This document shows positions 3 through 54,996 of a DNA stretch of 64,000 bases, piece after piece. The notes below the pieces were generated by a model. The model worked only from the letters and a program-made list of their open reading frames with translations. It was not told the DNA's origin and ran no database searches. Source of the stretch: an uncultured Gemmataceae bacterium (GTDB taxonomy: Bacteria; Planctomycetota; Planctomycetia; Gemmatales; Gemmataceae); NCBI GenBank assembly GCA_963750165.1, contig CAVVPN010000003.1, positions 3,200,001-3,264,000 of the forward strand, given 5' to 3'. Within the stretch, counting starts at the first letter, position 1; every line of letters begins with the position of its first letter. The position numbers and the translations under genes are program-made.

Positions 3-3000
3 GGCATTAACAGCGCCAGCACCTTCCTGCTGACGAACACCGTCTTCGTCAACGGCACCACCACCGGCACCGCGTTGACGCTGACCAACCAACCGCTGCC
101 GGCCGGCAACGCCACCCTGACCAACACCGGCACCCTGGCCATCCAGAACACCGACTCCGCCGGCCCGATCACCGTCAACGCCGGCACGCTGGTCGTCGGC
201 GGCAACGGCGCGCTGACGGGGGCCGCCAACACGAACGCGGCGCAGACCATCACTTTCGGCGGGACCAACACCATTGGCGGCATGTTCACCCTGACCGTCC
301 TGGGCCGCACCACGGCGCCCATCTCCTGGGACTCGACCACCGCCAACCTGCAAGCCAACATCCAGACCGCCCTCGACACCCTGCTCGGCGCCGGCACCAC
401 TGTGGTTTCCAACTCCGCCAACCCCACCGTCACATTCCAGGGCGTCCTGGGGGGCCAGCCCATCCCCTTGATGACCGCCAGCGGCGTCGGCCTGACCGGC
501 ACCAACCCGACCGTGACGGTCACCAACACCACCAACGGCGCCTCGGCCATCACCATCAACACCGGAGGCACGCTGGTCCTGGACAACTCCAGCACCAACA
601 ACGCCAACCGCGTCAGCGACACGGCCAACATCCTGCTCAATGGCGGCATGCTCATCTACCTGGGCAACGGCACCGCCGCCTCGACCGAGACGGTGGGGAA
701 CCTGAACCTCGGCGCCGGCAACTCGACGGTCAACGTCGTCCCTGGCTCGGGTCAGGCCGCCACGCTCACCTTCAACAACCTCGGCAACCGCCTGCCGGGC
801 GGCCTGGTCAACTTCAACGGCGCCAACCTGGGCGGCTTCACCGGCACGAACAGCCAGATCGTCTTCACGAACGCGCCGACGCTGGTCAACGGCATCCTGC
901 CCTACGCGCTGGTCAACGGAAGCGACTTCGCCACCATCGGCGGCAGTGGCATGACCATCCAGGCCCTCAGCGCCACCAGCCCCAACAGCAGTAACTTCGC
1001 CACCTCGTTGCCGACGGACGGCACGGCGGTGGCCACGGTGAACTACAAGCTGACCGACCCCGGCACGCTCACCCTGACGGGCGCCACCGCCATCAACGGC
1101 CTGCTGATCGTCGGCGCCACAATGCCGACCGTGCTGAACCAGGGGGGCAACAGCCTGACGCTCGACACCCTGGCCTTCAGTGGTACGCAGGCCGCGACGA
1201 TCTCGGGCGGCAGCATCGCCCTGGGCATGACCGAGGGCGTCTTCATGACCGCCCCCGGCGCCACCGCGACCCTGTCCAGCAACGTCACCGGCAGCGGCGG
1301 CCTGACCGTCGGCGGCGCCGGCACGCTCACCCTGAGCGGCACCAACACCTACACCAACAGCAGTTCCAGCCAGACCCTGAACATCATCGGCGCGCCCACC
1401 GCCGGCACGTTCACGCTAACCTTCAACGGCCAGACCACGACCGCCCTGAACTACAACGCCCTGGCGAGCGACATCCAGAACGCCCTGCAGGCGCTGCCGA
1501 ACATCGGCAGCGGCAACGTGCTGGTCACGGGCACCAACCCCGGCCCCTTCACGGTCACCTTCACCGGCGCCCTGGCGGCCACGCCGCTGGCGACGCTGGC
1601 ACTGGGCACCAATAGCCTCACCGGCGGCACCACCCCCACCGTCCTCGTGGAGGTGGCGACCGCCGGCCTGGTTGCCACCACGTTGGCGGGCGGCACCCTG
1701 GTCCTGGGCGGCACCAACGCCCTGGCCGCGGGCGGTTTGCAGGCCATCGCCGGCACCCTCCAGGGCGGCATCGCCCCAACCACGGCGCCGCTGACGCTGA
1801 CCAATTCGCTGCTGCTCAGCACCAGCACCGTCACCTTCGGCGGCACCCACCCGTTCGTGGTGACCGGCGGCGTCACGCTGAACGGCATCAACAACCTGCT
1901 CACCGTCAACACCAACACGACCTTCGCGGGCCAGGTCAGCAACGGCATCACGGCGGCCACTCTGACCAAGCAGGGCACCGCCACGCTGTACCTGACCAGC
2001 AACGTCAATAACTTCACCGGCCAGACGACAGTCGCCAGCGGTTACCTCAACGTCCAGGCCGCCAACGCCCTGGGCACCAGTTCCGCCGTGACGGTCGCCA
2101 GCGGCGCCGCGCTCCAGCTGCAAGCCTCGCTCAACGCCAACGGCAGCTTCACCTTCTCCCGGGCCCTGACGCTCTACGGCAACGGCCCGACCGGCAACGG
2201 CGCCCTGGAGAGCGTGCTCGGCACCAACGTCGTCTCGGGCACCATCACCCTGAACACCGCCGCGACCATCGGCGTCACCTCCGGCGCCCTGACCCAGACT
2301 GGCGTCATCAGCGGGCCCGGCGACCTGACCAAAGCCGGTGGCGGCACCTTCAACATGACCGCCGCCAACAGCTACACCGGCAACACGATCCTGGCCAACG
2401 GCATCACCACCGTGGCCACGAACGCCTTCGTCCTTGGCGCGAGCACCGGCAACGCGGTCGTCAACAGCGGCGCCACACTGGCCATCGTCAACGGCTCGGG
2501 CGGCATCTTCGCCGCCAAGACGCTGATCCTCAACGGCACCGGCTACGCCGGCTACAACCTCGCCGGCGCCCTGGTCAGCACCACCGTGAACGCCACGCAG
2601 ACCTGGATGGGCAATGTCGTCCTCAACCCCGGCGCCACCATCGGCGTCACCACCGGCGGCAACCTGATCCTCGACGGCATCGTCAGCGGCACCGGCGACC
2701 TGACCAAGGTCGGCCCCGGCACCCTGACCCTGCCCGCGGCCGAGACCTACAGCGGCAACACAGTGGTCAACGGCGGCACGCTCGTCCTGCAGATCGCCGG
2801 CACTGCCCTGAACTCGCCGAACTTCATTGTCAACCCCGGCGCCACGCTGACCATCGACAACAACCAGAACGGCAGCACCACGTCGGTGCTGCTGACCAAC
2901 CGCATCGCCGACACCGCGGGCGTCACCCTGAACGCGGGCACGTTCAACTTCATCGCCAACCCGGGCACGGGCGGCGTCCTCAACGGCTTCCAGGTCGGCG

Positions 3001-6000
3001 GCGCCCTGGCCAACACCGAGACCATCGGCACCCTGACCCTGGGCGCCGGCTCCTCGACCATCCAGACCGGCTACACCTCGGCCCCGAACGCCGCCACCTC
3101 CTCGACGCTGACCGCCGCCAGCCTGGTGCGCAACGCTGGCGCCACGGTCAACTTCCAGTCCAACGCCGGCGGCCTGAGCACCGCCCTGCTCGGCAGCACC
3201 TTCAACAAGGTGACGTTCACCAGCGCTCCCACCACGGTCGGCAACGGCGGCGGCATCCTGCCCTACGCCCTGGCGAGCAACAACTTCACCAGCGGCGAGG
3301 ACTTCGCCACCTATGACCAGGTTGCCAACAGCATTGCTGCGTTCACCAACTACGCGACCTCCCTCGCCACCGCGGGCGCCGGCGACACCGTCAAGCTGGC
3401 CGCCGTCGAAACGCTGACCGGCAACAAGACGATCAACGGCCTGCTGCTGGTCGGCGGCACGGTTGGCCTGGCGGGCAACACCCTGACGATCACCAGCGGC
3501 GGCCTGGCCGCCACCGCGACCAACGCTGCCACCACCAGCACGGTCATCGGCGGCACGGTGGCGTTCGGCAGCGCCGAGGGCGTCATCAACACCGTCAACA
3601 ACGGCGGCAACGCGGCCAGCCTGGTCTTCCAACCCCTGACCACGGGCAGCGGCGGCCTGACGGTCGGCGGCAACGGCGTCGTCACACTGCCCAACGCCAG
3701 CACCGTCACCGGCCCCTCGACCTTCGCGGGCGGCACCCTCAACCTGGGCAACGGCACGGGCCTGGGCACCGGCACGCTCAGCCTCATCAGCGGCACCCTG
3801 CAGGGCCTGGCCGCGATCACGATCAACAACCCGCTGGCCCTGAACAACAGCAACGTCACGCTCGCCGGCAACCAGAACCTGACCTTCACCGGCAGCGGCA
3901 CGCTCAGCGACACCGGTACGGCCGCGGGCACGTTCGCCAGCACCGTGAACGTTACCGACACGGCCCTGACCGTCTTCTCGGGAGCGCTCGGCGGCAGCGG
4001 CAGCCTGTTCCTCAGCGGCACGGGCAACGTGGTGCTGTCCGGGGCCAACACGTACTCCGGCGGCACGTTCGTGACCGGCAACCTCATCGTGGTGGTCGGC
4101 AGCAACAGCGCCTTCGGCACCGGCACCCTGGCTCTGACGACCGGCACACTCCTGGCCGACGCCGCCGGGCACACCCTGGCCAACAACTTCGTCCTCAACG
4201 GCTTCGGCTTCGTCTTCGGCGGCAGCAGTTACAACGGCGCGAGCAGCGGCTCCACGGCGAACAGCAACCTGACCTTCAGCGGCACGGGCGTGCTCGCCTA
4301 CGTGAACACGACGATGTCGATCTCGACGACTCTCGTGGTGTCCAACACGACCACGTTCGGCGGCACGATCAGCGGGCCGGGCGGCCTGCTGGTGACCGGG
4401 CCGGGCAACCTCGTCCTGGCGGGCACGAACACCTATGCCGGCGGCACCGCCCTCAACTCCTCCGGCATCGGCCTGGCCGCCGTCCAGTTCACCACGTCCG
4501 CCACCTCGACGGTGACGGGGATCAACTTCCCCGGGTTGACGCCGCTGTTCGCGCACCTCGACCCGGTCGTCAATTACGTGACGCAGAACGGCTTCATCCC
4601 GCCGGTCGGCTTCCTCAACCCGCCCCCGGTCCCGGGCGGCCTGCCGATCGCCGGTGACGCCCTGACGGAGAGCGGCTACCTGAACATCGTGACGCCGGGC
4701 AACTACACCTTCCAGTTCCTCGGCGACGACGGCGCCGTGGTGTATCTGGACGGCGTCCTCATCACCCACGGCGACGGTGTGAACCAGACGGCGACCAGCG
4801 TCACCCTGCCGCTGGCCGCGGGCCTGCACAGCCTGCAGATCCGCGTGAACAACAACACCGGCGGCGCGCAGGCGGTCCTGAACTACTCTGGCCCGGACAC
4901 CAACAACGTCAACGTGCAGGTCCAGCCGGGGGCGCTGTCGAACCCACTGGGCACGGCCGGCACGCTCCAGGTCACGAACGCCAGTTCCCTGGGCACCGGC
5001 CCGGTGGCGCTGTCCAACGGCGTCCTGCAGGCCACGAATGCGGTGACGATCAGCAACCCGGTGTCGATTACCGGCGGAGCGCTGCCGCTGGTGTTCGCCG
5101 GCAGCAACATCACCATCGCTAACTCGGCCACCCTGACCGGCAACGTCAACCTGTCGGTGAACAACACGACCACCTTCAACGGCGACCTCGCCAACGCATC
5201 CGGCCTGGTCCCCGCAATCCAACTGCTGGCCGCCGGACTGACCCTGACCAGCCAGCCAGTGACCGTCGGCACCACGACCTACACCGGCAACGGCAACCTG
5301 GTGTTCACCAACTCGGTCAGCTACTCCGGCCCGACCAGCGTCAGCGCCGGCACCCTGACGCTGAGCGGCAACGGCGCCCTGACGCAGACTGCCGGGGCCA
5401 ACGCCACGCAGACCGTCAGCATCATCAAGGCCGCCAGCGGCACGTTCACGCTGACCTTCAACGGCCAGACCACCGGGACCATCACTTACAGCACGACGCC
5501 GACCGTCACGGCCCAGAACATCCAGGCCGCCCTCGCCGGGCTGTCCAACGTCGGCATCGGCAACGTCACTGTCAACTTCGTGCCGGGCAGCAGCGCCAAT
5601 AACCAGCAGATCCTCGTCGCCTTCGTCGGTGCCCTGGCCGGGCAGGCCCTGCCGACGATGTCGATCAACATCAGCGGCATGACCGCGTCGGCGCAATTCG
5701 TCCTCGGCAGCGTCGCGACGACGACGGTCGGCGCCGCCGGCCTGACGATCAATACCGGCGGCACCGTCGTGCTGGACAACACCACGGTCAACAACACCAA
5801 CCGCCTGAACGACGCCGCCACCGTCGCCCTGGGCGGCGGCACGTTCAAGCTGCTCGGCAACGCCAACGCCCCGTCGTCCGAGACGCTCGGGGGAGTCGGA
5901 CTGGTGAGCGGCAACTCCACCATCTTCACGCAGGCCGGCACCGGCCAGTCCGTCAAGCTGACCGCGCCCACCGCCCTGCGCCTGCCCGGCGCCACGGTCA

Positions 6001-9000
6001 ACTTCGTGGCCGGCGGCGGCCAGGTTCTGGGCAGCGCCACCAACCAGGTGCTGCTCAGTGGCGTGGCGTCCGCATCCCTGTTGATCGGCGGCATCGTGCC
6101 GTTCGCCACCGTCACCGACGCCAGCACGGTCACCGGCAACACCACCGGCTTTAACCTGGCCACGGCCACCGACACCACCAGCGGCGCCAGCATCCAGGCC
6201 CTCACCACCTACGACACCAGCAACGTCCTCGTCACCAGTTCGCAGGCCCTGACCGGGATGGTCAACGCCGTGCTGATCGTTGGCGACGGCATCAACGTGA
6301 GCGGCGCCGCGCTGACCGTGAGCAGCGGCGTGGTGGCCAGCAGCGGCGGCAACACGACCGGCAATACGGTGTCCGTCGCCGCCCTGACGCTGGGCTCGAC
6401 CGAGGGCATTTTCACCGCCTACACCCATGCGACGACGGCCGCGCCGGCTGGCGGCAACCTGAAGTTCACCGGCACCATCACCGGCACCGGCGGCCTGACC
6501 TTCTCCGGGCCGACCTCGACCGCGTCCACCACCGCCGGCGTGGTGGCCGTGAACGGCGCCAACAGCATCATCGGCGCCGTGAACCTCAACAGCGGTACGC
6601 TCAGCCTCGGCAACAGCCTGGCCCTGGGCAGCGTCCCGGTCGCGGCCTCGGTCATCGTCCCCAACTTCAGCTTTGAAACGCCCGCCCAGGGGACCGGTTA
6701 CGTTTATAACCCGACCGGCGGCTCCTGGACCTTCCTGGGCCAGAGCGGCCTTGCCGGCAACGGCAGCGCTTTCGGCCCGCCCAACGCGCCCAACGGCGTC
6801 CAGCAAGATTTCCTCCAGAACCTGGGGAGCTTCTCGCAGAGCCTCACCTTCCCGGTCGCGGGGACATACGCCATCACCTTCTATTCCGCCGGCCGCAACG
6901 GCTACGGCTCGAACCCCTTCCAGGTGCAGATCGACGGGGTGCAGATCGGCTCGACGATCACTCCGGTGGTCAATGTCTACGGTGCGTACACCATTACCTT
7001 CACGGTCTCGTCCAGCGGGGCCCACACCCTGGGCTTCGTGGGTACGAACTCCACCAGCAGCGACTTCACGTCGTTCATCGACAACATCTCCATCGTGCAG
7101 GTGCTGGTCGGCACCCAGGAGGCCACGGTGTACCTCAACGGCGGCACGTTGCTGGCGAGCACTGCGGTGACGCTGCCCCAGCCTGTCGTCCTGAACAGCA
7201 GCAACGTCACTCTGGGCGGGAGCAATTCCCTGGTGTTCACGGGAGCGGTCACACTGGCCGGCCTCAACAACACCCTGAACGTCACCAACACTGCCCCGAC
7301 CATCATCACCGGCGTTGTGAGCGACGCCGCCGTCAGTCCCGCCCAATCGCTGACCAAGACGGGCGCCGGCACCCTGATCCTGACCGGCGCCAACACCTAC
7401 TCGGCCCAGACCAACATCCTCGCCGGCGTCGTCAACGTCCAGAGCGCCACGGCGCTCGGCGCCACGCCCGACCAGCCCCCGGTGTCCTCCTTGGCCAACG
7501 CCGCCGTCGCGAACGCGGGCGGCACCATCGTCGGCGCCGGCGCCACGCTGCAGGTGCAGGGCGGCATCACCGTCAACGAGGCGGTGGCGCTCAACGGCGG
7601 CACGCTGGAGAGCGTGACCGGGACCAACACCTTCGGCGGCTCGATCAACCTCCTGGCGTCCAGCACCATCGCGGTGGACGCGGGCCAGCTGACGGTGAGC
7701 AGCCAGGTCGCCGGCAGCGCGGACCTGACCAAGACAGGCGGCGGCACCCTGGTGCTGACGGACAACAACACCTACACCGGCCAGACCAACGTCAACGCCG
7801 GCATCTTGACGCTCGGCAGCATCGGCGGCACCGCCGGCCCCAACACGCTCGGGGCGGCGACGGGCAGCGTCGTCGTCGCCGCCGGCGCCACCCTGCAGCT
7901 CAACCCGGGCGCCGGCACCACCTACACCAGCAAGCAGTTGATCCTGAACGGTTCGGGCCTGGGCCTGACCACCTCCGGCCTGCTGCTGCCCACCGGCGCC
8001 CTGGAGAACATCACCAACGCCACCAGCGTCTGGACCGGCAACATCATCCTGAACACGCCGGACGCCACGGTCAGCGGCACGACGGGCACCCTGGTGCTGG
8101 CCGGCACCGTGAGCGGCACGGGCAGCCTGACCAAGGTGGGGACCGGCACCGTCGTCCTGGCCGCGACCGACACCTACACCGGCGCCACCACGGTGAGCGC
8201 CGGCACACTGACCCTCGGCAGCGTCGGCAGCATCCAGACCACCGCCAGCGTCACGCTGAACAATTCGTACGCGTCCGGCGCCAATCTGACCGTGGACAAC
8301 CAGAACGCCTACGCCGGGGCGGCCAGCGGCTACAACGTGCCCAACCGGCTGGGCGGCACGGTCGGCGTGACGCTGAACAACGGCGTGTTCAACCTGATCG
8401 GCAACAATACCTCAGGCTCCGGCAGCGCCGAGTCGGTGTCTACCCTGACCGTCAACAGCGGCGCCTCGTTCATCAACCAGACCAGCGGCTCGGGCCTGAA
8501 TGCCTCCGCCGTCCTGACGGTCGGCACCCTGACCCGCAACCAGGGGGCGACCCTCGGTTTCGTGCCGGGTGGCAGCGCCGGGGTCAACAACAGCTTTAAC
8601 AGCGCCTTCAACAAGGTGCTTATCAACACGCTCGGCACCGGGGTGGCCATGGTCAACGGCATCCTGCCGTGGGCGACGGTCGGCACCCTCGGGGCGACGA
8701 GCGGCACGCCCGGTGGCTCGGCCATCGTCGGCCAGTACGACTTCGTGACCCTGGTCCCCAGCGGCACCGCCAGCAGCGTCGCAGCCTTCACCAACTACAA
8801 GACCTCGCTGGCCGCCGCCGGCCCGACCGACACTGTCCGCCTGACGGCCAGCGAGACCCTGACGTCCAACAAGGTGGTCAACGCCATCATGGTCGCCGGC
8901 ACCACCGCCGGGATCAACGTCACGATCACGCAGAACAATTTCACCCTGGGCGTGACCGCCGGCGCCATCATGTCGATGGGCAACCAGCTGCTAACCATCA

Positions 9001-12000
9001 GCGGCGGCACGGTCGATTTCGGCACGTCCGAGGGCATCCTGAACCAGAACAACGCCAACATCACGGTCAACAGCACGCTGTCCGGCAGCGGCGGCCTGAC
9101 CGTGACCGCCACCACCGCGGGCAACATCACCCTGAACGCCGCCAACAACCTGACGGGCAGCACCTACCTCAACTCGACCGGCAGCACCACGCTGACCGTG
9201 GGCAACCTCAGCGCGCTCGGCAGCGGTGCCCTGACGCTGACGAGCGGCTCGTTGACCAACAGCGTCGGCAACAACTTCGTCGTGGCCAACCCGGTCAACT
9301 TCAACGACAGCGTGTTCACGTTCGGCAGCTCGGCCAACCGCTTCGTCCTCACCGGCCCGATCGCGTTGACGGGCAACAACCAGATCACCGCCGATTCCAA
9401 CGCCACCGTCGGGCAGGCGACCTTCTTCAGCGGCGTCATCAGCGGCACCGGTTCGCTCAACCAGCTCGGCGGCGCCCTGGTGATTCAGAACCCGAACAAC
9501 ACCTACTCCGGCGGGACCAACCTCGCCGCCGGCAACCTGATCGTGACGGCCAGCGACACCGTCAGCGGCGGCAACGTGACCAAGGGCCCGCTCGGCACCG
9601 GCGCCGTCAACCTCACCGGCGGCCTCTTCCAGGCCGCCGCCAGCAACGTTTCGGATTACACGGTCAACGCCATCACCCTGCACAACGCGATCATCCTGGC
9701 CAACGCGAACACCATCGTCGCGGGTGGTGCCCAAACGAACGCCGGCGGAGGTGGCAACATCACCCTGGCGGGCCCTGTGACCCTCTCCGGCAACAACACG
9801 CTGGGCGTCACGGCCGGCTTCAACTTCATCATCTCGGGCACCATCAGCGGCAGCGGTTCGCTGACCAAGACCAACAACGGCTCCTTGCTCCTCAACGGCA
9901 ATAACACCTTTACCGGCGGCCTCACGGTCGGCTTCAGCGCCGGCGTCCTCGGCAACGTCGGCAACGTGATTATCGGCAACAACAATGCCCTGGGCAGCGG
10001 CGTGCTCACGCTGGCGGGCGGCGCCTTCCAGGACGACGGCAACAGCGCGCTCACCGTGAGCAACAACGTGATCCTCGCCGCCGGCACCACCAGCACCATT
10101 AACGCGATCAACCCGAGCCTCCCGTTCACCTTCACCGGCTACGTCGGCGGCACCGGCAACCTGGTCAAGGGCTTCGCCAGTTTGACCACTTACGAAAGCA
10201 CGATGGACGATGTCCTGACGCTCAATTTCCTGAACAACTCTCTGATCACCGGCGGCACCTTCACCTTGACGCTCAACGGCGCCACCACCGGCACCATCGC
10301 GTGGAGTTCGACCCCGGCCATGCTGGTCACGAACATCCAAAACGCGCTGAACCTCCTGCCGAGCGCCATCGTCGGCCCCTATCAGCCCGTCGTCAACGGC
10401 ACCAGCCTCAGCGCCATTTCGATCACGTTCCAGACGCTCACCCCCAACGCCAACGGCGGGGCCACCCCGACCGTGTCCTTCAACGGCGCGGGCCTGACCC
10501 TGGCCGGCACTGGCGTCGCCACGATCGCCGCCTCTCCGAGTGGCGCCACCGAAGCGACCAATACCGTCACCATCACCACCACCGCTGCCCACGGCTTCCT
10601 GGTCGGCCAGTACGTCACCATCACCGGTGTTGGCGTCACCGGCTATAACGGCACCTACCTCATTACCTCGGTCCCGACCGCGACCAGTTTCACCTACATC
10701 GATCCGACCACCGGCCTGGCGGCCTCGGGCGGTGGTTCGGCGGCGGTTGTCTCTTCGATCAGCCCGACCCTGGGTTCCGGTACGCTCAACCTGCAAGGTG
10801 TGTCGCTCTACACCGGCACCACTACCGTCAATCAGGGCAAGCTGAGCCTGAGCGGCGGCGGCCAACTTGTGAACACGACCGCGGTGACGGTCAACCCCGG
10901 CGCCACGCTGACCCTGGACAACACCGGCGCCAATAACTCCAACCGCATCAACGACGCGGCCAACCTCACCCTGAACGGCGGCAACTTGACCTTGCTGGGC
11001 ACCGCCAACGCCGCCTCGTCCGAGACCCTGGCGGCTCTCATCCTGGGCGCCGGCAACTCGACCATCACGACCACGGCCGGCACCGGCACCGGTTCGGTCG
11101 CCCTGACGCTGGCGAACTTCGTCCGCAATACAGGCGGCATCGTCAACTTCGTCGCCGGCGGCGGTCAGATTCTCGGCAGCGCGACGAACCAGGTGATCGT
11201 TAACCAGATGGCGGCGACCATCTTGACCGGTGCTGCCACGGGCATCCTGGCGGGCGCGACGGTGACCGACGGCACCACCACCGTCAATGTCGATGCGGGC
11301 ACCGCCAACTCCGGCGGCTTCAACCTGGTTACGGCCGGGGCTTTGTCCACCGGCTCCACTACCAGTTTGGCCGCGCTGACGACCTACGTAAGTTTGAACC
11401 TCACCGCCGGCAACAACCCGACGGACAACGTCTTCGTCAACTTGACCGGGGCTCAGGCGCTGGGCACCGCGAACACGGTGAACGCCATCCTGTTTAACAC
11501 CGACGGCCTCAACCTCACCGGGACCTCGCTCACGTCCGCCTCGGGCATGTACGTGTTCGCCGACACCGGCAACACCGGCAACACCATCGCCGTCAGCCCG
11601 AGCGTGACCGGCGAAGGCATCTTCATCACGAACAATAGCCCCGGCACCACGGGCGTCACCAACATCACCGGCGTCATCCCGGCCACGGCGACGGCCCTGA
11701 CCATCGGCGGCACTGGCTCGCTCGCCCTGAGCGGGGCCAACCTCAACACCGGCACGGTCAATCTCGATTCCGGCAACCTGATCCTTGGTAATGCCACGGC
11801 CATTGGCCCTGCCGCCACGATCCTCGCCGCCTACGGCGGCACCATTTCGACCGCCGCCGCCCTCACGATCGCCAACCCGCTCCAACTGCGGACCGGGGCC
11901 GCCTACCTGACCTTTACCGGCGCCAACAACATCACCTGGTCCGGCGCCATTTCCCTTGGCGGTTCGCTCGCCGTGGATATGAACACGAGCACGACGACTT

Positions 12001-18928: not shown

Positions 18929-19014
18929 ACGGCAACCCAGGGCACGGTGTCACTGGCAATCCGGAGTTGGGTGGTTCGGTTGTTCCTGCCGTGCCGGTAA
19001 AGGGGGGAAGCTGC

Positions 19015-19095
19015 GTAAAAAAAACCGCCCAGAACAACCGACACTTTTTACTTGAGGATGGCGTATAGTCATTATAAAGGTTAATTTATGTGAGA
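19015..19095 (+). promoter_or_regulatory. AT-rich putative promoter region for protein 2
   Basis: AT-rich island in GC-rich DNA with TTGAGG (19052) and TATAAA (19073). The 15-nt spacing is suboptimal. Confidence 0.35.
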
Positions 19096-19198
19096 TGCGT
19101 TTCGGGCAACCGGAGCGCACGGGGGCTGAGCTGTCTTGGCAACCCCGGGTCCGCGTGCGGCTCTTCGTTTCTGAGTCCTGACACAAGTGAGTGGCAAC

Positions 19199-28100: not shown

Positions 28101-31100
28101 CTTCACTGTCACGGCTCCGGCCACGGCCACGGCGGGCAGCGCTTTCAACTTCACGGTGACGGCGCAGGATGCCTTCAACAACACCGCCACGGGCTACAGC
28201 GGCACCGTCCACTTCACCAGCAGCGACGGCCAGGCCGTCCTGCCCGCCAATAGCACCCTGACCAACGGCACCGGCACCTTCAGCGTCACCCTCAAAACCG
28301 CCGGCAACCAGACGTTGACCGCCACCGATACGGTGACCAGCACGATCACCGGCACCAGCGCCGCCATCGCCGTCAGTGCCGCGGCGGCCACGCACTTCAG
28401 CGTCACGGCTCCGGCCACGGCCACGGCGGGCAGCGCCTTCAACTTCACGGTGACGGCGCAGGATGCCTTCAACAACGCCGCCACGGGCTACAGCGGCACC
28501 GTCCACTTCACCAGCAGCGATGGCCAGGCCGTCCTGCCCGCCAATAGCACCCTGACCAACGGCACCGGCACCTTCAGCGTGACGCTCAAGACCGCCGGCA
28601 ACCAGACCGTGACCGCCACCGATACGGTGACCAGCACGATCACCGGCACCAGCGCCGCCATCGCCGTCAGCGCCGCCGCCGCCACCCACTTCAGCGTCAC
28701 TGCTCCGGCCACAGCCACGGCGGGCAGCGCCTTCAACGTTACGGTGACGGCGCAGGACGCCTTCAACAACACCGCCACCAGCTACAGCGGCACCGTCCAC
28801 TTCACGAGCACGGACGGCCAGGCGGTGCTGCCGGCCAACAGCACGCTGACCAACGGCACCGGCACCTTCAGCGTGACGCTCAAGACCGCCGGCAACCAGA
28901 CGCTGACCGCCACCGACACGGTGACCAGCACGATCACCGGCACCAGCGGCACCATCGCCGTCAGCGCCGCCGCCGCCACCCACTTCAGCGTCAGCGCTCC
29001 CAGCAGCGCCACGGCGGGCAGCGCCTTCAACGTCACGGTGACGGCGCAGGACGCCTTCAACAACACCGCCACCGGCTACAGCGGCACCGTCCACTTCACC
29101 AGCACGGACGGTAGTGCCACGCTGCCGGTCAACAATACGCTCACCAACGGCGTCGGCACCTTCAGTGCCACCCTGCAGACGGCCGGCAACCAGACGTTGA
29201 CCGCCACCGATACGGTGACCAGCACGATCACCGGCACCAGCAACACGATCACGGTCAGCACCTTCCCCGCTACGCACTTCGCCGTCAGCGCCCCGAGCAG
29301 CGCCACGGCGGGCAGCGCCTTCACCTTCACGGTCACGGCCCTGGACGCCAGCAACAACCCGACCACAGGGTACAGTGGCACGGTGCATTTCGCCAGCAGC
29401 GACGGCCAGGCGGTGCTGCCGGCGAACAGCACGCTGACCAACGGCACCGGCACCTTCAGCGTCACGCTCAAGACGGCCGGCAGCCAGACCCTCACGGCCA
29501 CCGATACGGTCACCAGCACGATCACCGGCACCAGCGCCGCCATCGCCGTCAGCGCCGCCGCCGCCACCCACTTCAGCGTCACCGCCCCCAGCAGTGCCAC
29601 GGCGGGCAGCGCCTTCAACTTCACGGTGACGGCGCTGGACGCCTTCAACAACACGGCGACGGGCTACAGCAGCACCGTCCACTTCACCAGCACGGACGGC
29701 CAGGCCGTGCTGCCCGCCAATAGCACCCTGACCAACGGCACCGGCACCTTCAGCGTGACGCTCAAGACCGCCGGTAGCCAGACCCTGACGGCCACCGACA
29801 CGGTGACCAGCACGATCACCGGTACCAGCGCCGCCATCGCCGTCAGCGCCGCCGCCGCCACCCACTTCAGCGTCAGCGCCCCGGCCACGGCCACGGCGGG
29901 CAGCGCTTTCAACTTCACGGTGACGGCGCAGGACGCCTTCAACAACACCGCCAGTGGCTACAGCGGCACCGTCCACTTCACCAGCAGTGACGGCCAGGCC
30001 GTCCTGCCCGCCAATAGCACCCTGACCAACGGCACCGGCACCTTCAGCGTGACGCTCAAGACCGCCGGCAACCAGACCGTGACCGCCACCGATACGGTGA
30101 CCAGCACGATCACCGGCACCAGCGCCGCCATCGCCGTCAGTGCCGCGGCGGCCACGCACTTCAGCGTCACGGCTCCGGCCACGGCCACGGCGGGCAGCGC
30201 CTTCACCTTCACGGTGACGGCGCAGGACCAGTTCAATAACACGGCGACGGGCTACAGCGGCACCGTCCACTTCACCAGCAGTGACGGCCAGGCCGTGCTG
30301 CCGGCGAACAGCACGCTGACCAACGGCACCGGCACCTTCAGCGTGACGCTCAAGACCGCTGGCAACCAGACCGTGACCGCCACCGACACGGTGACCAGCA
30401 CGATCACCGGTACCAGCGCCGCCATCGCCGTCAGTGCCGCGGCGGCCACGCACTTCAGCGTCACTGCTCCGGCCACGGCCACGGCGGGCAGCGCCTTCAA
30501 CTTCACGGTGACGGCGCAGGATGCCTTCAACAACGCCGCCACGGGCTATACCGGCACCGTCCACTTCACCAGCAGCGACGGCCAGGCCGTCCTGCCCGCC
30601 AATAGCACCCTGACCAACGGCACCGGCACCTTCAGCGTCACGCTCAAGACGGCCGGCAACCAGACGTTGACCGCCACCGATACGGTGACCAGCACGATCA
30701 CCGGCACCAGCGCCGCCATCGCCGTCAGTGCCGCGGCGGCCACGCACTTCAGCGTCACGGCTCCGGCCACGGCCACGGCGGGCAGCGCCTTCACCTTCAC
30801 GGTGACGGCGCAGGACCAGTTCAATAACACGGCGACGGGCTACAGCGGCACCGTCCACTTCACCAGCAGTGACGGCCAGGCCGTGCTGCCGGCGAACAGC
30901 ACGCTGACCAACGGCACCGGCACCTTCAGCGTGACGCTCAAGACCGCTGGCAACCAGACCGTGACCGCCACCGATACGGTGACCAGCAGCATCACCGGTA
31001 CCAGCGCCGCCATCGCCGTCAGTGCCGCGGCGGCCACGCACTTCAGCGTCACTGCTCCGGCCACGGCCACGGCGGGCAGCGCCTTCAACTTCACGGTGAC

Positions 31101-34100
31101 GGCGCAGGATGCCTTCAACAACGCCGCCACGGGCTACAGCGGCACCGTCCACTTCACCAGTAGCGATGGTCAGGCGGTGCTGCCGGCTAATAGTACGCTC
31201 ACCAGCGGTGTCGGCACCTTCAGCGTCACGCTCAAGACGGCCGGCAACCAGACGATTACGGCCACCGATACGGTGACCAGCACGATCACCGGCACCAGCA
31301 GCGCCATCACGGTCAGCGCCGCCGCCGCCACGCACTTCAGCGTCACGGCTCCGGCCACGGCCACGGCGGGCAGCGCCTTCACCTTCACGGTGACGGCGCA
31401 GGACGCCTTCAACAACACCGCCACGGGCTACAGCGGCACCGTCCACTTCACCAGCTCCGATGGCCAGGCGGTGCTGCCGGCGAACAGCACGCTGACCAAC
31501 GGCACCGGCACCTTCAGCGTGACGCTCAAGACCGCTGGCAACCAGACCGTGACCGCCACCGACACGGTGACCAGCACGATCACCGGCACCAGCGCCGCCA
31601 TCGCCGTCAGCGCCGCCGCCGCCACCCACTTCACCGTCACTGCTCCGTCCACGGCCACGGCGGGCAGCGCCTTCAACTTTACAGTGACGGCCCTGGACGC
31701 CTTCAACAACACCGCCACGGGCTACAGCGGCACCGTCCACTTCACCAGTAGCGACGGCCAGGCCGTCCTGCCCGCCAATAGCACCCTGACCAACGGCACC
31801 GGCACCTTCAGCGTGACGCTCAAGACCGCTGGCAACCAGACGCTCACGGCCACCGACACGGTGACCAGCACGATCACCGGCACCAGCAGCGCCATCACGG
31901 TCAGCGCCGCCGCCGCCACCCACTTCAGCGTCACCGCCCCGGCCACGGCCACCGCCGGGACGGCGTTCAGCGTGACGGTGACAGCGCAGGACGCCTTCAA
32001 CAACACGGCCACGGGCTACACCGGCACCGTCCACTTCACCAGTAGCGACGTCCAGGCCGTGCTGCCCGCCAATAGCACCCTGACCAACGGCACCGGTACC
32101 TTCAGCGTGACGCTCAAGACCGCTGGCAACCAGACCGTGACCGCCACCGACACGGTGACCAGCACGATCACCGGCACCAGCGCCGCCATCACCGTCAGCG
32201 CCGCCGCCGCCACGCACTTCAGCGTCACTGCTCCGTCCACGGCCACGGCGGGCAGCGCCTTCAACTTTACAGTGACGGCCCTGGACGCCTTCAACAACAC
32301 CGCCACGGGCTACAGCGGCACCGTCCACTTCATCAGTAGCGACGGCCAGGCCGTGCTGCCGGCTAATAGTACGCTCACCAGCGGTGTCGGCACCTTCAGC
32401 GTCACGCTCAAGACCGCTGGCAACCAGACCCTGACGGCCACTGATACGGCGACCAGCACGATCACCGGCACCAGCGCCGCCATCGCCGTCAGCGCCGCCG
32501 CCGCCACCCACTTCAGCGTCACCGCCCCGGCCACGGCCACGGCGGGCAGCGCTTTCAACTTCACCGTGACGGCGCAGGACCAGTTCAATAACACGGCGAC
32601 GGGCTACAGCGGCACCGTCCACTTCACCAGCAGTGACGGTCAGGCCGTGCTGCCGGCGGACGCCACCCTGACCAGCGGCACCAGCACCTTCAGCGCCACG
32701 CTCAAGACGGCCGGCAGCCAGACGCTCACGGCCACCGACACCACTACCAGCACGATCACCGGCACCAGCGCCGCCATCACGGTCAGCGCCGCCGCCGCCA
32801 CGCACTTCAGCGTCACTGCTCCGGCCACGGCCACGGCGGGCAGCGCCTTCAACTTCACGGTGACGGCGCAGGACGCCTTCAACAACACCGCCACGGGCTA
32901 CAGCGGCACCGTCCACTTCACCAGCAGTGACGGTCAGGCCGTGCTGCCGGCGGACGCCACCCTGACCAACGGCACCAGCACCTTCAGCGTCACGCTCAAG
33001 ACGGCCGGCAGCCAGACCCTCACGGCCACCGACACCACTACCAGCACGATCACCGGCACCAGCGCCGCCATCACGGTCAGCGCCGCCGCCGCCACGCACT
33101 TCAGCGTCACTGCTCCGGCCACGGCCACGGCGGGCAGCGCCTTCAACTTTACGGTGACGGCGCAGGACGCCTTCAACAACACCGCCAGTGGCTACAGCGG
33201 CACCGTCCACTTCACCAGCAGCGACGGCCAGGCCGTGCTGCCGGCGGACGCCACCCTGACCAACGGCACCGGCACCTTCAGCGTCACGCTCAAGACGGCC
33301 GGCAACCAGACGCTCACGGCCACCGACACGGTGACCAGCACGATCACCGGCACCAGCGCCGCCATCGCCGTCAGCGCCGCCGCCGCCACGCACTTCAGCG
33401 TCACGGCTCCGGCCACGGCCACGGCGGGCAGCGCCTTCAACTTCACGGTGACGGCGCAGGACGCCTTCAACAACACCGCCACGGGCTACAGCGGCACCGT
33501 CCACTTCACCAGCAGTGACGGTCAGGCCGTGCTGCCGGCGGACGCCACCCTGACCAACGGCACCAGCACCTTCAGCGTCACGCTCAAGACGGCCGGCAAC
33601 CAGACCCTCACGGCCACCGACACCACTACCAGCACGATCACCGGCACCAGCGCCGCCATCGCCGTCAGCGCCGCCGCCGCCACGCACTTCAGCGTCACCG
33701 CCCCGGCCCCGGCCACGGCGGGCAGCGCTTTCAACTTCACGGTGACGGCGCAGGACGCCTTCAACAACACGGCCACGGGCTACACCGGCACCGTCCACTT
33801 CACCAGCAGTGACGGTCAGGCGGTGCTGCCGGCGGACGCCACCCTGACCAACGGCACCGGCACCTTCAGCGTGACGCTCAAGACCGCTGGCAACCAGACC
33901 CTGACGGCCACCGATACGGTGACCAGCACGATCACCGGCACCAGCGCCGCCATCGCCGTCAGCGCCGCCGCCGCCACCCACTTCACCGTCACTGCTCCGT
34001 CCACGGCCACGGCGGGCAGCGCCTTCAACTTCACGGTGACGGCGCAGGACGCCTTCAACAACACCGCCACGGGCTACAGCGGCACCGTCCACTTCACCAG

Positions 34101-37100
34101 CAGTGACGGCCAGGCCGTGCTGCCGGCGAACAGCACGCTGACCAACGGCACCGGCACCTTCAGCGTGACGCTCAAGACCGCTGGCAACCAGACCCTCACG
34201 GCCACCGACACCACTACCAGCACGATCACCGGCACCAGCGCCGCCATCGCCGTCAGCGCCGCCGCCGCCACGCACTTCAGCGTCACGGCTCCGGCCACGG
34301 CCACGGCGGGCAGCGCTTTCAACTTCACCGTGACGGCGCAGGACCAGTTCAATAACACGGCGACGGGCTACGGCGGCACCGTCCACTTCACCAGCAGTGA
34401 CGGCCAGGCCGTGCTGCCGGCGGACGCCACCCTGACCAACGGCACCAGCACCTTCAGCGCCACGCTCAAGACGGCCGGCAACCAGACCCTGACGGCCACC
34501 GACACGGTCACCAGCACGATCACCGGCACCAGCGCCGCCATCGCCGTCAGCGCCGCCGCCGCCACGCACTTCAGCGTCACGGCTCCGGCCACGGCCACGG
34601 CGGGCAGCGCTTTCAACTTCACCGTGACGGCGCAGGACGCCTTCAACAACACCGCCAGTGGCTACAGCGGCACCGTCCACTTCACCAGCAGCGACGGCCA
34701 GGCCGTGCTGCCGGCGGACGCCACCCTGACCAGCGGCACTGGTACTTTCACCGTCACCCTCAGGACGGGCGGCAACCAGACGCTTACCGCCACCGACACG
34801 GTCACCAGCACGATCACCGGCACCAGCGCCGCCATCAGCGTCAGTGCCGCGGCGGCCACGCACTTCAGCGTCACCGCCCCGGCCCCGGCCACGGCGGGCA
34901 GCGCTTTCAACTTCACGGTGACGGCGCAGGACGCCTTCAACAACACGGCCACGGGCTACACCGGCACCGTCCACTTCACCAGCAGTGACGGTCAGGCCGT
35001 GCTGCCGGCGGACGCCACCCTGACCAACGGCACCGGCACCTTCAGCGTGACGCTCAAGACCGCTGGCAACCAGACGCTTACCGCCACCGACACGGTCACC
35101 AGCACGATCACCGGCACCAGCGCCGCCATCAGCGTCAGTGCCGCGGCGGCCACGCACTTCAGCGTCACTGCTCCGGCCACGGCCACGGCGGGCAGCGCCT
35201 TCAACTTCACGGTGACGGCGCTGGACCAGTTCAACAACACCGCCAGTGGCTACACTGGCACGGTGCATTTCACCAGCACCGACGGCCAGGCCGTGCTGCC
35301 CGCCGACAGCACCTTGACCAACGGCACTGGTACCTTCAGCGCCACGCTTGAGACCGCTGGCAGCCAGACGCTGACCGCCACCGATACGACCTCCAGCAGC
35401 ATCACCGGCACCAGCGCCGCCGTCACGGTCAGCGCCGCCGCCGCCACCCACTTCAGCGTCACCGCCCCGGCCACGACCACCGCCGGGACGGCGTTCACCT
35501 TCACCGTGACGGCGCAGGATGCCTTCAACAACACCGCCACGGGCTACAGCGGCACCGTCCACTTCACCAGCAGCGACGGCAGCGCCGTACTGCCGGCGGA
35601 CACCACTTTGACCAGCGGCACTGGTACTTTCACCGTCACCCTCAAGACTGCCGGCAATCAAACGATTACCGCCACCGACACCGTCACCAGCACGATCACC
35701 GGCACCAGCGCCGCCATCGCCGTCAGCGCCGCCGCCGCCACCCACTTCGCCGTCAGCGCTCCGAGCAACGCCACGGCGGGTGGCGCCTTCAACTTCACGG
35801 TCACGGCCCTGGATCCGTTCAACAACACGGACACGAGCTACACCGGCACGGTGCATTTCACCAGCAGCGACGGCCAGGCGGTATTGCCCGCCGACAGCAC
35901 CTTGACCAACGGCGCTGGCACCTTCAGCGCCACGCTCAAGACCGCTGGCAGCCAGACGCTGACCGCCACCGATACGACCTCCAGCAGCATCACCGGCACC
36001 AGCGCCGCCGTCACGGTCAGCGCCGCGGCGGCCACGCACTTTAGCGTCACCGCCCCGGCCACGGCCACGGCCGGGATCGCCGCCAGCTTCACGGTCACGG
36101 CCCTGGACCCGTTCAACAACACGGACACGGGCTACGGCGGCACCGTCCACTTCACCAGCAGCGACGGCCAGGCGGTGCTACCGGCCGACACGACGCTGAC
36201 CAACGGCACCGGCACGTTTAACGTCACGTTCCAGACGGCGGGCAGCCAGACGCTGACCGCCACTGACACGGTCACCAGCAGCATCACCGGCACCAGCGCC
36301 GCCGTCACGGTCAGCGCTGCGAAAGCCACGCACTTCAGCGTCAGTGCCCCGAGCAATGCCACCGCGGGCAGCGCCTTCAGCTTCACGGTCACGGCCCTGG
36401 ATCCGTTCAACAACACCGCCACCGGCTACACCGGCACGGTGCATTTCACCAGCAGCGACGGCCAGGCCGCCCTGCCCGCCGACAGCACCTTGACCAACGG
36501 CACCGGCACCTTCAGCGCCACCCTCAAGACCGCCGGCAGTCAGGCCCTCACCGCCACCGACACGGTGACCAGCAGCATCACCGGCAGCAGTGGCACCGTC
36601 AACGTGAGCCCCGCCGCCGCCAGCCACTTCAGCGTCAGCGCCCCGGCCGCGGCCACGGCGGGCAGCGCCTTCACCTTCACGGTCACGGCCCTGGACGCCT
36701 TCAACAACACCGCCACCGACTACACCGGCACCGTCCACTTCACCAGCTCCGACACCGCCGCCACCCTGCCGGCGGACGCCACCCTGACCAGCGGCACCGG
36801 CACCTTCAGCGCCACCCTGCAGACGGTCGGCGCCCAGACGCTGACCGCCACCGACACCGTGACCAGCAGCCTCACCGGCACCAGCGCCGCCGTCACGGTC
36901 AGCAGCACCAACCCCAACACCACCTTCCTGGAAAACGCCTACCTGGACCTGCTCGGCCGGCCCATCGACCCGGTCGGCCTGTCGTACTGGTCGTCCGTCC
37001 TCGATCAGGGCTACTCCCGCACCTACGTCCTCGCGGGCATCCAGGCCAGCAACGAGTACAAGACGGATCTCGTCAATAAACTGTTCACGCAACTGCTCGG

Positions 37101-38834
37101 CCGCGCCGCCGACGCCACCGACGTGGCCAACTGGGTGTTGTTCCTCAACCAGGGCGGCACCGTGGAAGAACTCAAGGCGGGCATCATGGGCAGCGCCGAG
37201 TTCCTGGCCCACAACGGCGGCACCGACACCGGCTTCCTGCAGGGCGTCTACCAGGCCGCCCTCGGCCGCACTGGCTCCACGACCGAGCAGGCCGGCTGGC
37301 TAGCGGAACTGACGGCCGGGAACTCGCAGTACGACGTCGCGCTGCAAATCCTGACCACTCCCGAGGCCTACCAGTTCTACGTCAAGAGCGAGTTCGCCAG
37401 CCTGCCGCACGCCACCGCCCCCGCCAGCTCTGCCAGCCAGTACGTCACCCTGCTCCAGCAGGGGGTGCGCGACGAGTCCATCGTCGCTGGCATCTTCATC
37501 AACAACCTGGCCGGCTCGGCCAATTACGACGCGATCACCAAGACCGTGGCCTCCAGCAGCACGCCGCCGGACACGGGAAATGGCTTCCTGGCGCAGGTCT
37601 ACCAGGACGTGCTGGGCCGGGCCATCGACGCGACCGGTCTGGCGAGCTGGTCGCCGCTGCTCGACGAGGGCATCTCCCACCAGGACGTGGCGGCGGACAT
37701 CCTGGCCACACCGGAGGCGAACACGCACCTGGTGCAGGGGCTGTATACGCAGTTGCTGGGCCGGCCGGCGGACCCGACGGGCCTGGCGGGCTGGGTGGGG
37801 GTGCTGGCGCAGGGCGGGACCGTCGAACAGGTCAAGGCGGGCATCATGGGCACGGACGAGTTCCTGGCCCACAACGGCGGCACCGACACCGGCTTCCTGC
37901 AGGGCGTCTACCAGGCCGCCCTCGGCCGCTCCGCCTCCGCCAGCGAGTTGGCCAACTGGCAACAATTGCTGAACGCCGGCACGTCGCGTTCCAGCGTCGC
38001 GTTGTTTATCCTGACCTCCGACGAGGCCCACGGTTACCTGGTGCAGACCTACTACCAGGACCTGCTGTTCCGCGACGGCCAGAGCGCCGAGGTGATCGGC
38101 AACGCCCTGGCCCTGAAGGGAATCGGGACCGACCAGTCGGTCGAGGCCGCGGTGCTGGGCTCGGCGGAGTATCTCTCCTACACCGACAGCAGCACGCTGA
38201 ACAATCCGGTGCTGTCCACGGAGTCTGCCTTCCTGGGGCAGTTGTACCAGGACGAACTGGGGCGGGCGATCAATGCGTCGGAGGAGGCGGGCTGGTCGTC
38301 GTTCCTGGCCCAGGGCACCACGCGCGAGATGGTGGCCGAGTCGGTCGTGAACTCGACGGAGGCGCAGACATATCTGGTGCAGGGGCTGTACCAGCAGTTG
38401 CTGGGTCGGGCGGCGGACCCGACCGGGCTGGCCGGTTGGGTGAACGCGCTGGCCGCGGGGGCGACGGTCGAGCAGGTCAAGGCGGGGATCATGGGCAGCG
38501 ACGAGTTCCTGGCGCACAACGGCGGCACCGACACCGGTTTCCTGCAGGGCGTCTACCAGGCGGCCCTCGGCCGCTCCGCCTCCGCCGCCGAACTGGCCGG
38601 TTGGCAGCAACAGTTGGCGGCGGGTACGTCGCGGACGAGTGTCGCCCTGCAGATTCTGACCACCACGGAGGGCCGCGGCTACCTGGTGAGCAGCCTCTAC
38701 CAGTCCCTGCTGCACCGCACTCCCAACCCCACCGAGCAGCGCAGGGGGCCGCCGCCCTCCAGAGCGGCGCCACCGACCAGGTGCTGGAGACGGCCATCCT
38801 CTCGTCGCGGGAATTCGACGTGAACCTGCAATGA
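19199..38834 (+). CDS. Giant scaffoldin-like surface protein: LEPR-XLL-type leader, 6 cohesin-like domains, ~49 Ig-like 98-aa repeats, C-terminal DUF4214-like domains (two apparent frameshifts)
   Basis: N-terminus RPRKRLGVELLESRVLPA. ORFs 19187..27085 and 27061..38823 join if one C is restored at ~26987 (gtgacgggcaggac versus repeat consensus gtgacggcgcaggac). A second shift at ~38741 gives the tail AQGAAALQSGATDQVLETAILSSREFDVNLQ* ending at 38834. Confidence 0.85.
19322..24560 (+). repeat. Three near-identical ~1.06-kb cohesin-pair cassettes (starts ~19322, ~21266, ~23504) separated by 3 and 4 Ig repeats
   Basis: SAYISMPTNLSANQGTVVTVPV...DTVDGSVQI occurs three times almost identically. Spacings are 1944 and 2238 bp (1944+294). 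Confidence 0.92.
24563..36906 (+). repeat. Tandem array of ~42 x 294-bp (98-aa) Ig-like repeats
   Basis: Unit ATHFSVTAPATATAGSAFNFTVTAQDAFNNTATGYSGTVHFTSSDGQAVLPANSTLTNGTGTFSVTLKTAGNQTLTATDTVTSTITGTSAAIAVSAAA. The span of ~12.34 kb divided by 294 gives 42. Confidence 0.95.
36920..38834 (+). other. DUF4214-like helical repeat region (three units), probable cell-surface anchor
   Basis: Repeated F[LV]xxxYxDxLGRxxDxxGLxxW...S.E motifs and three copies of GIMG[ST]xEFLAHNGGTDTGFLQGVYQAALGR. Confidence 0.75.

Positions 38835-51791: not shown

Positions 51792-54996
<3,205 letters not shown>

Follow-up and report, generated by a model that had tools for sequence, protein, structure and literature searches.

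Two co-oriented giant genes lie side by side in the 64,000-nt window analysed here (G000:C3:3200001-3264000), which comes from the 9.6-Mb, 12-contig, about 66% GC genome of an uncultured Gemmataceae bacterium, and their products, proteins 1 and 2, carry the modules of a cohesin-dockerin system (Table 1). Protein 1 begins 15.4 kb upstream of the window and has an open frame of 11,390 codons; as in its paralogues, the natural tail runs on in another frame beyond the stop, which gives a total of about 11,440 aa if the break in the tail is an assembly error. This extent had escaped the earlier note on this DNA, as had the PATR repeats that form the bulk of protein 1 and an immunoglobulin-like (Ig) domain that is a fixed part of its C-terminal four-domain cassette. 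Protein 2, which follows, combines cohesin pairs, a long run of Ig repeats and a DUF4214 tail, and we consider it a probable stalk for cassette-bearing proteins.

Table 1. Features of proteins 1 and 2 and of small cohesin-like genes elsewhere in the genome (window positions unless a contig is named; rmsd, root-mean-square deviation)
Feature	Position	Strand	Basis
Protein 1, in-window part	3..18928	+	ATG at G000:C3:3184607 (window -15393); open frame stops at 18779
PATR (autotransporter passenger-type) repeat region with small inserted domains	3..14840	+	PF12951, TIGR02601
PA14 lectin-like domain	4530..4952	+	PF07691, 32.1 bits (cut-off 24)
Seven Big_1-like Ig repeats, same family as the protein 2 repeats	14859..16928	+	Sequence; PF02369, 6 stretches
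Cassette domain 1, SbsC/CopC-like Ig domain	16929..17324	+	Model vs 2ra1_A, Z 11.1, rmsd 2.4, 95 aligned
Cassette domain 2, cohesin A, joined to the dockerin without linker	17325..17750	+	2jh2_B, Z 13.9, rmsd 2.5, 125 aligned
Cassette domain 3, type I-like dockerin with two calcium loops	17751..17966	+	PF00404, 32.0 bits (cut-off 22.9); 2ccl_B, Z 8.9, rmsd 1.6, 62/62 aligned
Cassette domain 4, cohesin B, after a short Pro-rich linker	18006..18500	+	4uyp_A, Z 16.8, rmsd 1.9, 137 aligned; PF00963, 32.7 bits
Protein 2, putative stalk-type scaffoldin, about 6,545 aa	19199..38834	+	Sequence; intact paralogue and homologues
Cohesin pair 1 (Coh1, Coh2), cohesin-B type	19325..20365	+	PF00963, profile
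Cohesin pair 2, after 3 Ig repeats	21269..22309	+	PF00963, sequence
Cohesin pair 3, after 4 Ig repeats	23507..24547	+	PF00963, sequence
42 contiguous 98-residue Ig repeats (49 in the whole protein)	24548..36900	+	Sequence; PF02369
DUF4214 repeat region, putative envelope anchor	36901..38834	+	PF13946, nine stretches, E 6e-88; feature matches to DUF4214 clusters
Small PEP-CTERM proteins with weak cohesin-profile scores, after dockerin-tipped giants (G000)	C12:111925-112665, C12:555420-556160, C3:2972658-2973506, C3:555322-556053		

Protein 2 contains six PF00963 matches (Coh1 53.5 and Coh2 38.8 bits against a cut-off of 24.1), as the earlier note had counted, although they are not clustered at the N-terminus as it proposed but form three Coh1-Coh2 pairs set apart by Ig repeats. 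The pairs are nearly identical, with 3-11 nt differences in 1,041, and a Coh2-led profile retrieves type I cohesins at E 2e-14, supporting their identity as cohesins. The Ig-like spacers, previously put at about 49, number exactly 49 with a period of 294 nt, and the DUF4214-like character of the C-terminus is borne out by PF13946; for this region, the sequence search gave no relative of solved structure, and DUF4214 has 100 matches in the genome. No cellulose-binding module was found in the scanned parts of protein 2, the remaining parts of which are copies of the same repeats, and no cellulase, CBM3, SLH or sortase motif was detected in proteins 1 and 2. In agreement with the earlier note, the scanned parts of both proteins yielded no catalytic Pfam domain.

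In the assembly, protein 2 is not the single open frame that had been assumed, since single-base losses near 26987 and 38738 interrupt it; a third loss, near 18670, affects the tail of protein 1. Within each run the Ig repeats are spaced 294 nt, except for one spacing of 293 nt, which is the break that splits the gene. Of 86 conserved genes tested, 5 contain frame breaks (0.05 per kb), a rate at which about 2.7 would be expected in the 54 kb of the two genes, against 3 observed. Furthermore, Coh-Coh stands at the start of a single uninterrupted chain in one paralogue and three homologues, three of which four chains end in DUF4214 (P0156, P0157 and P0159) and one in FG-GAP repeats (P0158). Because the break rate in conserved genes accounts for the interruptions and intact homologues exist, we rejected the reading of protein 2 as two real genes or a pseudogene; it is probably one protein of about 6,545 aa, and the breaks are probable assembly frameshifts.

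Protein 1 ends in cohesin-dockerin-cohesin, as first noted, followed by a low-complexity tail. Cohesin A scores slightly below the Pfam cut-off (21.3 against 24.1 bits), its closest fold being a cohesin-like module of Clostridium perfringens, whereas the dockerin and cohesin B pass; all three families proposed for checking, PF00963, PF00404 and PF13946, were matched at the locus. The Ig domain that precedes cohesin A had no Pfam match. All structural matches for the cassette are comparisons of AlphaFold models, and the model of the four domains reached a mean predicted local distance difference test score (pLDDT) of 91 and a predicted template modelling score (pTM) of 0.69, that of cohesin A-dockerin-cohesin B a pTM of 0.72. 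The junction of cohesin A and dockerin has high pLDDT and no linker, and the linker between dockerin and cohesin B is the only segment with pLDDT below 50 in both models. By these predictions, cohesin B and the dockerin match type I folds and cohesin A a cohesin-like module.

The pairing of a cassette-bearing giant with a multi-cohesin gene recurs. A second pair in the same genome (C3:3402049-3444474) consists of a giant PATR-plus-cassette gene in four frame pieces and, after it, a Coh-Coh/Ig/DUF4214 gene whose Coh-Coh part is 67% identical in protein to that of protein 2. The DUF4214 ends of the two stalk genes (window:36801-38900 and G000:C3:3442400-3444600) share 96% DNA identity, much above the value at their Coh-Coh starts, which may reflect recent conversion or a module swap at the tail together with divergence at the sockets. 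In G023, a same-family relative of a different genus represented by one contig (one protein of which is assigned by NCBI to Tuwongella immobilis), the cassette forms the end of a 10,631-codon frame that also contains RTX, propeller and PKD domains, and the gene after it encodes Coh-Coh, Big_5 repeats and FG-GAP; judged by domain content, the ends of the pair are kept and everything between them is exchanged relative to the present locus. In another genome, G446, the gene after the cassette has a Coh-Coh pair 45% identical to that of protein 2.

Next genes were also scored systematically with a cohesin profile, and at 16 of 64 loci the gene after the cassette reached at least 20 bits. Three of these 16 are frameshifted continuations of the same cassette and were dropped, and 18 loci picked for their cohesin hits were excluded, leaving 46 loci from 30 genomes; some of the 46 were chosen after a neighbouring hit had been seen, and kin among them are not independent. 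The next co-oriented gene carries a free cohesin at 9 of these 46 loci, in 9 of the 30 genomes, and as a background only frames at the locus itself scored among the 605 frames of G023. Six of the nine are single cohesins with a PEP-CTERM-type tail, a putative anchor. A similar arrangement exists in the present genome, where exosortases are present: of 80 candidates for the PEP-CTERM pattern, many of them spurious, the four with the highest cohesin-profile scores directly follow dockerin-bearing giants; two of the four are identical copies, and the preceding giants end in a different, C-terminal dockerin-like module. Three of the four genes are then followed, on the opposite strand, by apparent DUF1559-type gene pairs or unrelated genes. 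A related-locus search of named genomes with a single protein query gave no match.

The inventory of dockerins in this genome that the earlier note called for comprises 15 cassette copies in 14 frames, of two main subtypes, and six Pfam dockerin matches outside cassettes. The cassette was found in 8 of 60 relatives, and its profile had matches, some of them partial, in 49 of 400 genomes of the class at E<=1e-8, with three candidates scored per genome; its cohesin A-dockerin part was not found at E<=1e-20 in 300 genomes drawn across the phylum. In a 50%-identity cluster library, 2,032 clusters match the cassette at E<=1e-30. Domain order is nearly fixed, with exactly one Ig-CohA-Doc-CohB in 126 of the 150 best representatives; 88% of the cassettes in these 150 lie within 250 residues of the C-terminus, and the gap from dockerin to cohesin B spans 12-15 residues (5th-95th percentile, 154 cases). 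Cohesin B is missing from cassettes in G378, G074, G180 and G188 and from one in G418; in three of these genomes an adjoining gene supplies a cohesin, located downstream in G188 and divergent in G378 and G074. Further arrangements were seen: tandem genes with N-terminal free cohesins and C-terminal cassettes (G434; L192, L193), a Coh-Coh stalk ending in a dockerin-like segment (G446; L183), a cassette protein with a DUF4214 end (G462; L188), and a lone cohesin joined to cadherin repeats, with FG-GAP at the end (G328; L196).

Enzyme domains occur in 7 of the 33 cassette proteins scanned out of the best 150, namely two S8, M10, M23, GH10, metallophosphoesterase and GSDH, the remainder having Ig, Calx-beta or propeller repeats or nothing recognised. 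Glycoside hydrolase domains were absent from protein 1 and the 14 other frames of this genome scanned, and the GH10 domain is found in one of the 33 family representatives. With carriers of both kinds, the cassette would be a tag serving adhesins and enzymes alike; a role in adhesion and not in catalysis, much as suggested earlier, thus fits this pair of proteins but not the system as a whole.

Covariation within the cassette was analysed by the mean-field method in 211 cassettes. Couplings join domain 1 with cohesin A (D76-D141 at rank 5, L73-V271 at rank 8) as well as cohesin A with the dockerin (A143-V315 at rank 7), which suggests that the three form one rigid plug; couplings between domain 1 and cohesin B appear at ranks 21 and 43 and are possibly noise. 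The second-ranked coupling overall links position 10 of dockerin repeat 1 with position 10 of repeat 2. Indeed, the residue is identical in both repeats at positions 10, 11 and 17 in fractions of 0.52, 0.40 and 0.46 of the cassettes, compared with 0.26, 0.13 and 0.14 in shuffles, and the dockerin of protein 1 has Ser-Ala at positions 10/11 in both. The calcium loops are nearly invariant, Asp1 and Asp12 being present in at least 205 of 211 rows. On the cohesin side, an Asp aligned to the contact residue of Clostridium thermocellum, which we take to be Asp39 in that protein, occurs in 104 of 211 cohesin B rows compared with 42 of 211 cohesin A rows and in all cohesins of protein 2 and its paralogue; cohesin A of protein 1 has Thr at this position. 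PMC5772552 describes the strand-3 Asp of the C. thermocellum type I cohesin as a contact residue and type I dockerins as binding with two-fold symmetry, a mode of recognition that the symmetry at positions 10, 11 and 17 fits.

In a quick tree, all 20 cohesin A rows fall in one clade (support 96), apart from cohesin B, free cohesins and the cohesins of protein 2. Together with the couplings, this makes cohesin A a likely structural partner of the dockerin. Both cohesins of protein 1 are cohesin-like in fold, but with cohesin A in such a role only one of the two probably serves as a socket. The cohesins of protein 2 are closest, among the cohesins of the genome tested, to cohesin B of the protein 1 subtype and of one related cassette. 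A complex prediction of cohesin A-dockerin with Coh2 of protein 2, run without controls, scored 0.15 against a mark of 0.32 and counts neither way.

On balance, we favour the reading that protein 2 is a cell-anchored scaffoldin and that its cohesins bind, in trans, the cassette dockerins found in protein 1 and its cassette-bearing paralogues. Both proteins would be exported by means of a basic N-terminal leader that, from its pattern, we presume to be of the planctomycete type, PF07595 having given no score on the leader of either. The DUF4214 repeats would then hold protein 2 on the envelope, and the run of 42 Ig domains, at 3.5-4 nm per domain, would place the cohesin pairs at about 150 nm from the surface. 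The Ig domain of protein 1 would fold together with cohesin A and the dockerin into one rigid plug in which, as couplings and phylogeny suggest, cohesin A props the dockerin in the manner of X-modules. Loaded with calcium, this dockerin could dock on sockets of the cohesin B type, given the predicted folds and conserved contact positions, and the PATR rod might carry its lectin-like domains outward for adhesion. The cassette would act as a portable tag, other members carrying peptidases, GH10 or a phosphoesterase, and the simplest reading of free cohesins is as sockets on anchored partners, here a six-socket stalk. Recurrence of the gene pair, intact Coh-Coh stalks and cohesins encoded by next genes support docking in trans, as do the predicted folds, the neighbouring cohesins of cassettes that lack cohesin B, the symmetry of the dockerin repeats, and the retained Asp and cohesin B likeness of the protein 2 cohesins; the first three also lend the cell-anchored scaffoldin of the earlier note the comparative support it lacked, whereas its anchoring by DUF4214 is a part that we infer.

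Several observations weigh against this reading. Anchoring by DUF4214 draws on modelling and gene context in one preprint (10.64898/2026.09.02.748959), in which an RTX-DUF4214 protein of Pseudomonas works at the cell surface and binds O-antigen in a model; a surface role for DUF4214 is also suggested in PMC11970703 and 10.1101/695007. In the 211 cassettes, dockerin and cohesin B show no coupling above noise, the best pair standing at rank 67, and the dockerin repeats are symmetric also at position 9, the shuffle taking no account of relatedness. Of 17 free or extra cohesins, only 7 have the contact-aligned Asp, and Leu takes its place in cohesin B of protein 1, the dockerin of which lacks the Arg18 of the family. 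No cohesin gene adjoins the cassette at 37 of the 46 loci, and several of the nine cohesins in next genes helped to build the profile that scored them; five of the nine pass the Pfam cut-off independently, two are below it and two have no Pfam cohesin match. Finally, protein 2 could have its real partners among the six further dockerin matches, which lie in five other giant frames.

Cassette proteins could instead extend themselves, the dockerin of one binding cohesin B of another head-to-tail so that protein 2 only nucleates and branches the resulting mesh. We regard this as unlikely, even though it would accord with the nearly fixed order of the cassette, with the 12-15-residue gap held in about 90% of cases, with cohesin B being the best type I fold match and richer than cohesin A in the contact Asp, and with 15 cassettes facing only 2 stalks in this genome. 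Moreover, dockerin and cohesin B signatures shift together between the subtypes (4 copies pair Ser-Ala with Leu, and 10 pair Gly-Leu with Asp), a pattern that block duplication alone could give. The lack of a coupling signal between these two domains speaks against such chains, as does the description of cellulosomal proteins bearing both modules as adaptors that switch specificity (PMC4081043), which would halt growth after one step. Less probable still is that the dockerin binds its own cohesin B, or cohesin A, as a folding or mechanical clasp and that protein 1 never docks on protein 2. The short, conserved linker, the two couplings of domain 1 with cohesin B and the pTM of the three-domain model, which on a rough reading of an intermediate value exceeds that expected for a fully free third domain, would suit a clasp; yet the linker is the sole segment of low confidence in both models, some cassettes dispense with cohesin B, free cohesins with sorting tails adjoin cassette genes, and symmetric dockerin repeats suit an external partner.

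Protein 2 might also serve other dockerin proteins of the genome and not the neighbouring cassette. The dockerins outside cassettes leave room for this, and the PEP-CTERM cohesin-like genes that follow giants with a different dockerin-like module imply at least two types of plug; we nevertheless think it improbable, as a cassette gene immediately precedes each of the two stalk genes here and the stalk genes of G023 and G446. Least credible is the absence of any docking, in which cohesin and dockerin folds would be spacers or calcium-binding modules and the genes would adjoin through shared recombination of giant repeats. Both genes do share the same Ig repeat, the repeats are undergoing homogenisation, and cohesin-fold domains occur at lower Z in many adhesins and pilins, but single-cohesin PEP-CTERM proteins adjoin giants with which they share no repeats, and the calcium loops are nearly invariant. 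Beyond the favoured trans docking of cassette proteins on the stalk, every tagged adhesin or enzyme might both dock and offer a socket. Calcium-linked chains of giant proteins would then start at the six-socket stalks and ramify into a programmable protein coat or biofilm mesh, below a micron in scale, that surrounds Planctomycetia cells, and orthogonal subtypes would hold their networks apart; we put this forward as speculation, conceivable but rather doubtful.

The remainder of protein 1 is mainly PATR, with 30 PF12951 stretches (10+5 in the window and 6+9 upstream); TIGR02601 also matches the region, and a match to the IcsA passenger is weak. The lectin-like modules reported earlier are represented in the window by a Pfam-confirmed PA14 domain, the others (an L-type lectin, a second PA14 and MAM-like modules) lying upstream. 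No C-terminal beta-barrel translocator was matched by Pfam or NCBIfam in 14823-18680, beyond which the tail has only about 80 residues; an autotransporter with its own barrel was thus rejected, as no barrel domain was detected. A small domain inserted repeatedly in the rod (window:1353-1655, with similar ones near 282, 5439 and 10254 and upstream) resembles repeats in the tail-tip cage protein of a phage (9d93 gp23, E 1e-26), with weak matches also to a major capsid and a tail tube protein of related entries. Small E1_FCCH-like beta domains are also inserted (window:10533-10760, 13272 and 13500), and this motif is likewise found near the C-terminus of other cassette proteins.

Between the two genes, no sigma-70 promoter was found, and the one terminator-like site is at chance level. 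A 24-nt inverted repeat, 96% complementary with a 23-nt loop, lies 94 nt 3' of the protein 2 stop (window:38928-38998) and has a near-identical second copy at C12:1228174-1228266; it may be a REP-like element or a terminator. Farther downstream, ordinary genes are also apparently frame-broken (window:41024-43428, 47923-50763 and 52063-54951), comprising a DUF1549/DUF1553 gene and two histidine kinases that are separated from, or devoid of, an ATPase domain. A signalling cluster (window:47923-57312) consists of PAS/GAF kinases, Hpt, receivers and a fusion of Ser/Thr kinase, receiver and HD domains. At window:60720-63602, an alpha-amylase-family catalytic domain is joined to a maltokinase cap, a product that we take to resemble TreS.

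The proposed working of the locus resembles that of a cellulosomal anchoring scaffoldin and its adaptor-type partner; since no cellulase or cellulose-binding module was detected, however, the locus does not represent a cellulosome. As described for anaerobic Bacillota (PMC12484212, PMC4081043), cellulosome scaffoldins share with protein 2 type I-like folds, a non-catalytic multi-cohesin scaffold and a C-terminal putative anchor, and adaptors share with protein 1 the presence of both cohesin and dockerin (PMC4081043). In contrast, the present locus belongs to a diderm planctomycete, its cargo is a PATR rod of some 11,400 aa, its dockerin resides inside a fixed four-domain cassette with a cohesin-fold domain in the X-module position, and its putative anchors vary (DUF4214, FG-GAP repeats, PEP-CTERM). 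The likeness to an X-dockerin dyad would lie in a beta-sandwich directly upstream of the dockerin, without linker, with high pLDDT across the junction and with the coupling A143-V315 in the alignment. Protein 1 likewise resembles PATR autotransporter adhesins in passenger-type repeats over most of its length, but the cassette stands where their barrel would.

Within the phylum, the 'Planctosome' proposed for Nemodlikiaceae of the class Phycisphaerae (PMC6461901) is also a non-cellulosomal cohesin-dockerin assembly of anchor, adaptor and peptidase cargo, and both are hypothetical. As far as its available text goes, that model is of another class and has a lamin-tail anchor, P-domains and a Doc-HYR-Coh adaptor, none of which was found in proteins 1 or 2. 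The order Coh2-Doc1-Coh1 has been noted once in a bacterium of the Planctomycetes-Verrucomicrobia-Chlamydiae (PVC) group, in a scaffoldin-like protein of Limihaloglobus sulfuriphilus (PMC11557425), a single protein likened by domain order alone, for which the accessible part of that report proposes no mechanism or partner. A giant multi-cohesin scaffoldin of the diderm Ca. Stygibacter (PMC8542988) resembles protein 2 in its C-terminal surface-attachment domain and non-cellulase cargo but bears CBM2/3 and belongs to another phylum with another anchor, no cassette being described in the portion of the paper at hand. The literature searched, which did not extend to Peer et al. 2009 on non-cellulosomal cohesins or to the supplements of PMC6461901, contained no description of the cassette, the multi-cohesin stalk or the gene pair.

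The question addressed by these findings is how planctomycetes hold many giant secreted proteins on a diderm surface, for which the only published cohesin-dockerin model found in the phylum is a hypothesis from uncultured genomes. The locus defines a widespread, unannotated four-domain tag and a class of stalks with exchangeable spacers and tails. The G023 pair makes the idea testable with small recombinant domains and in a cultured organism, its species being, we assume, one that can be grown. If the proposed docking is true, the logic of cohesin and dockerin would reach beyond cellulose degradation and apply to surface display in general among Gram-negative bacteria, DUF4214 and FG-GAP tails would gain a testable role in anchoring, and new orthogonal pairs would become available for protein engineering.

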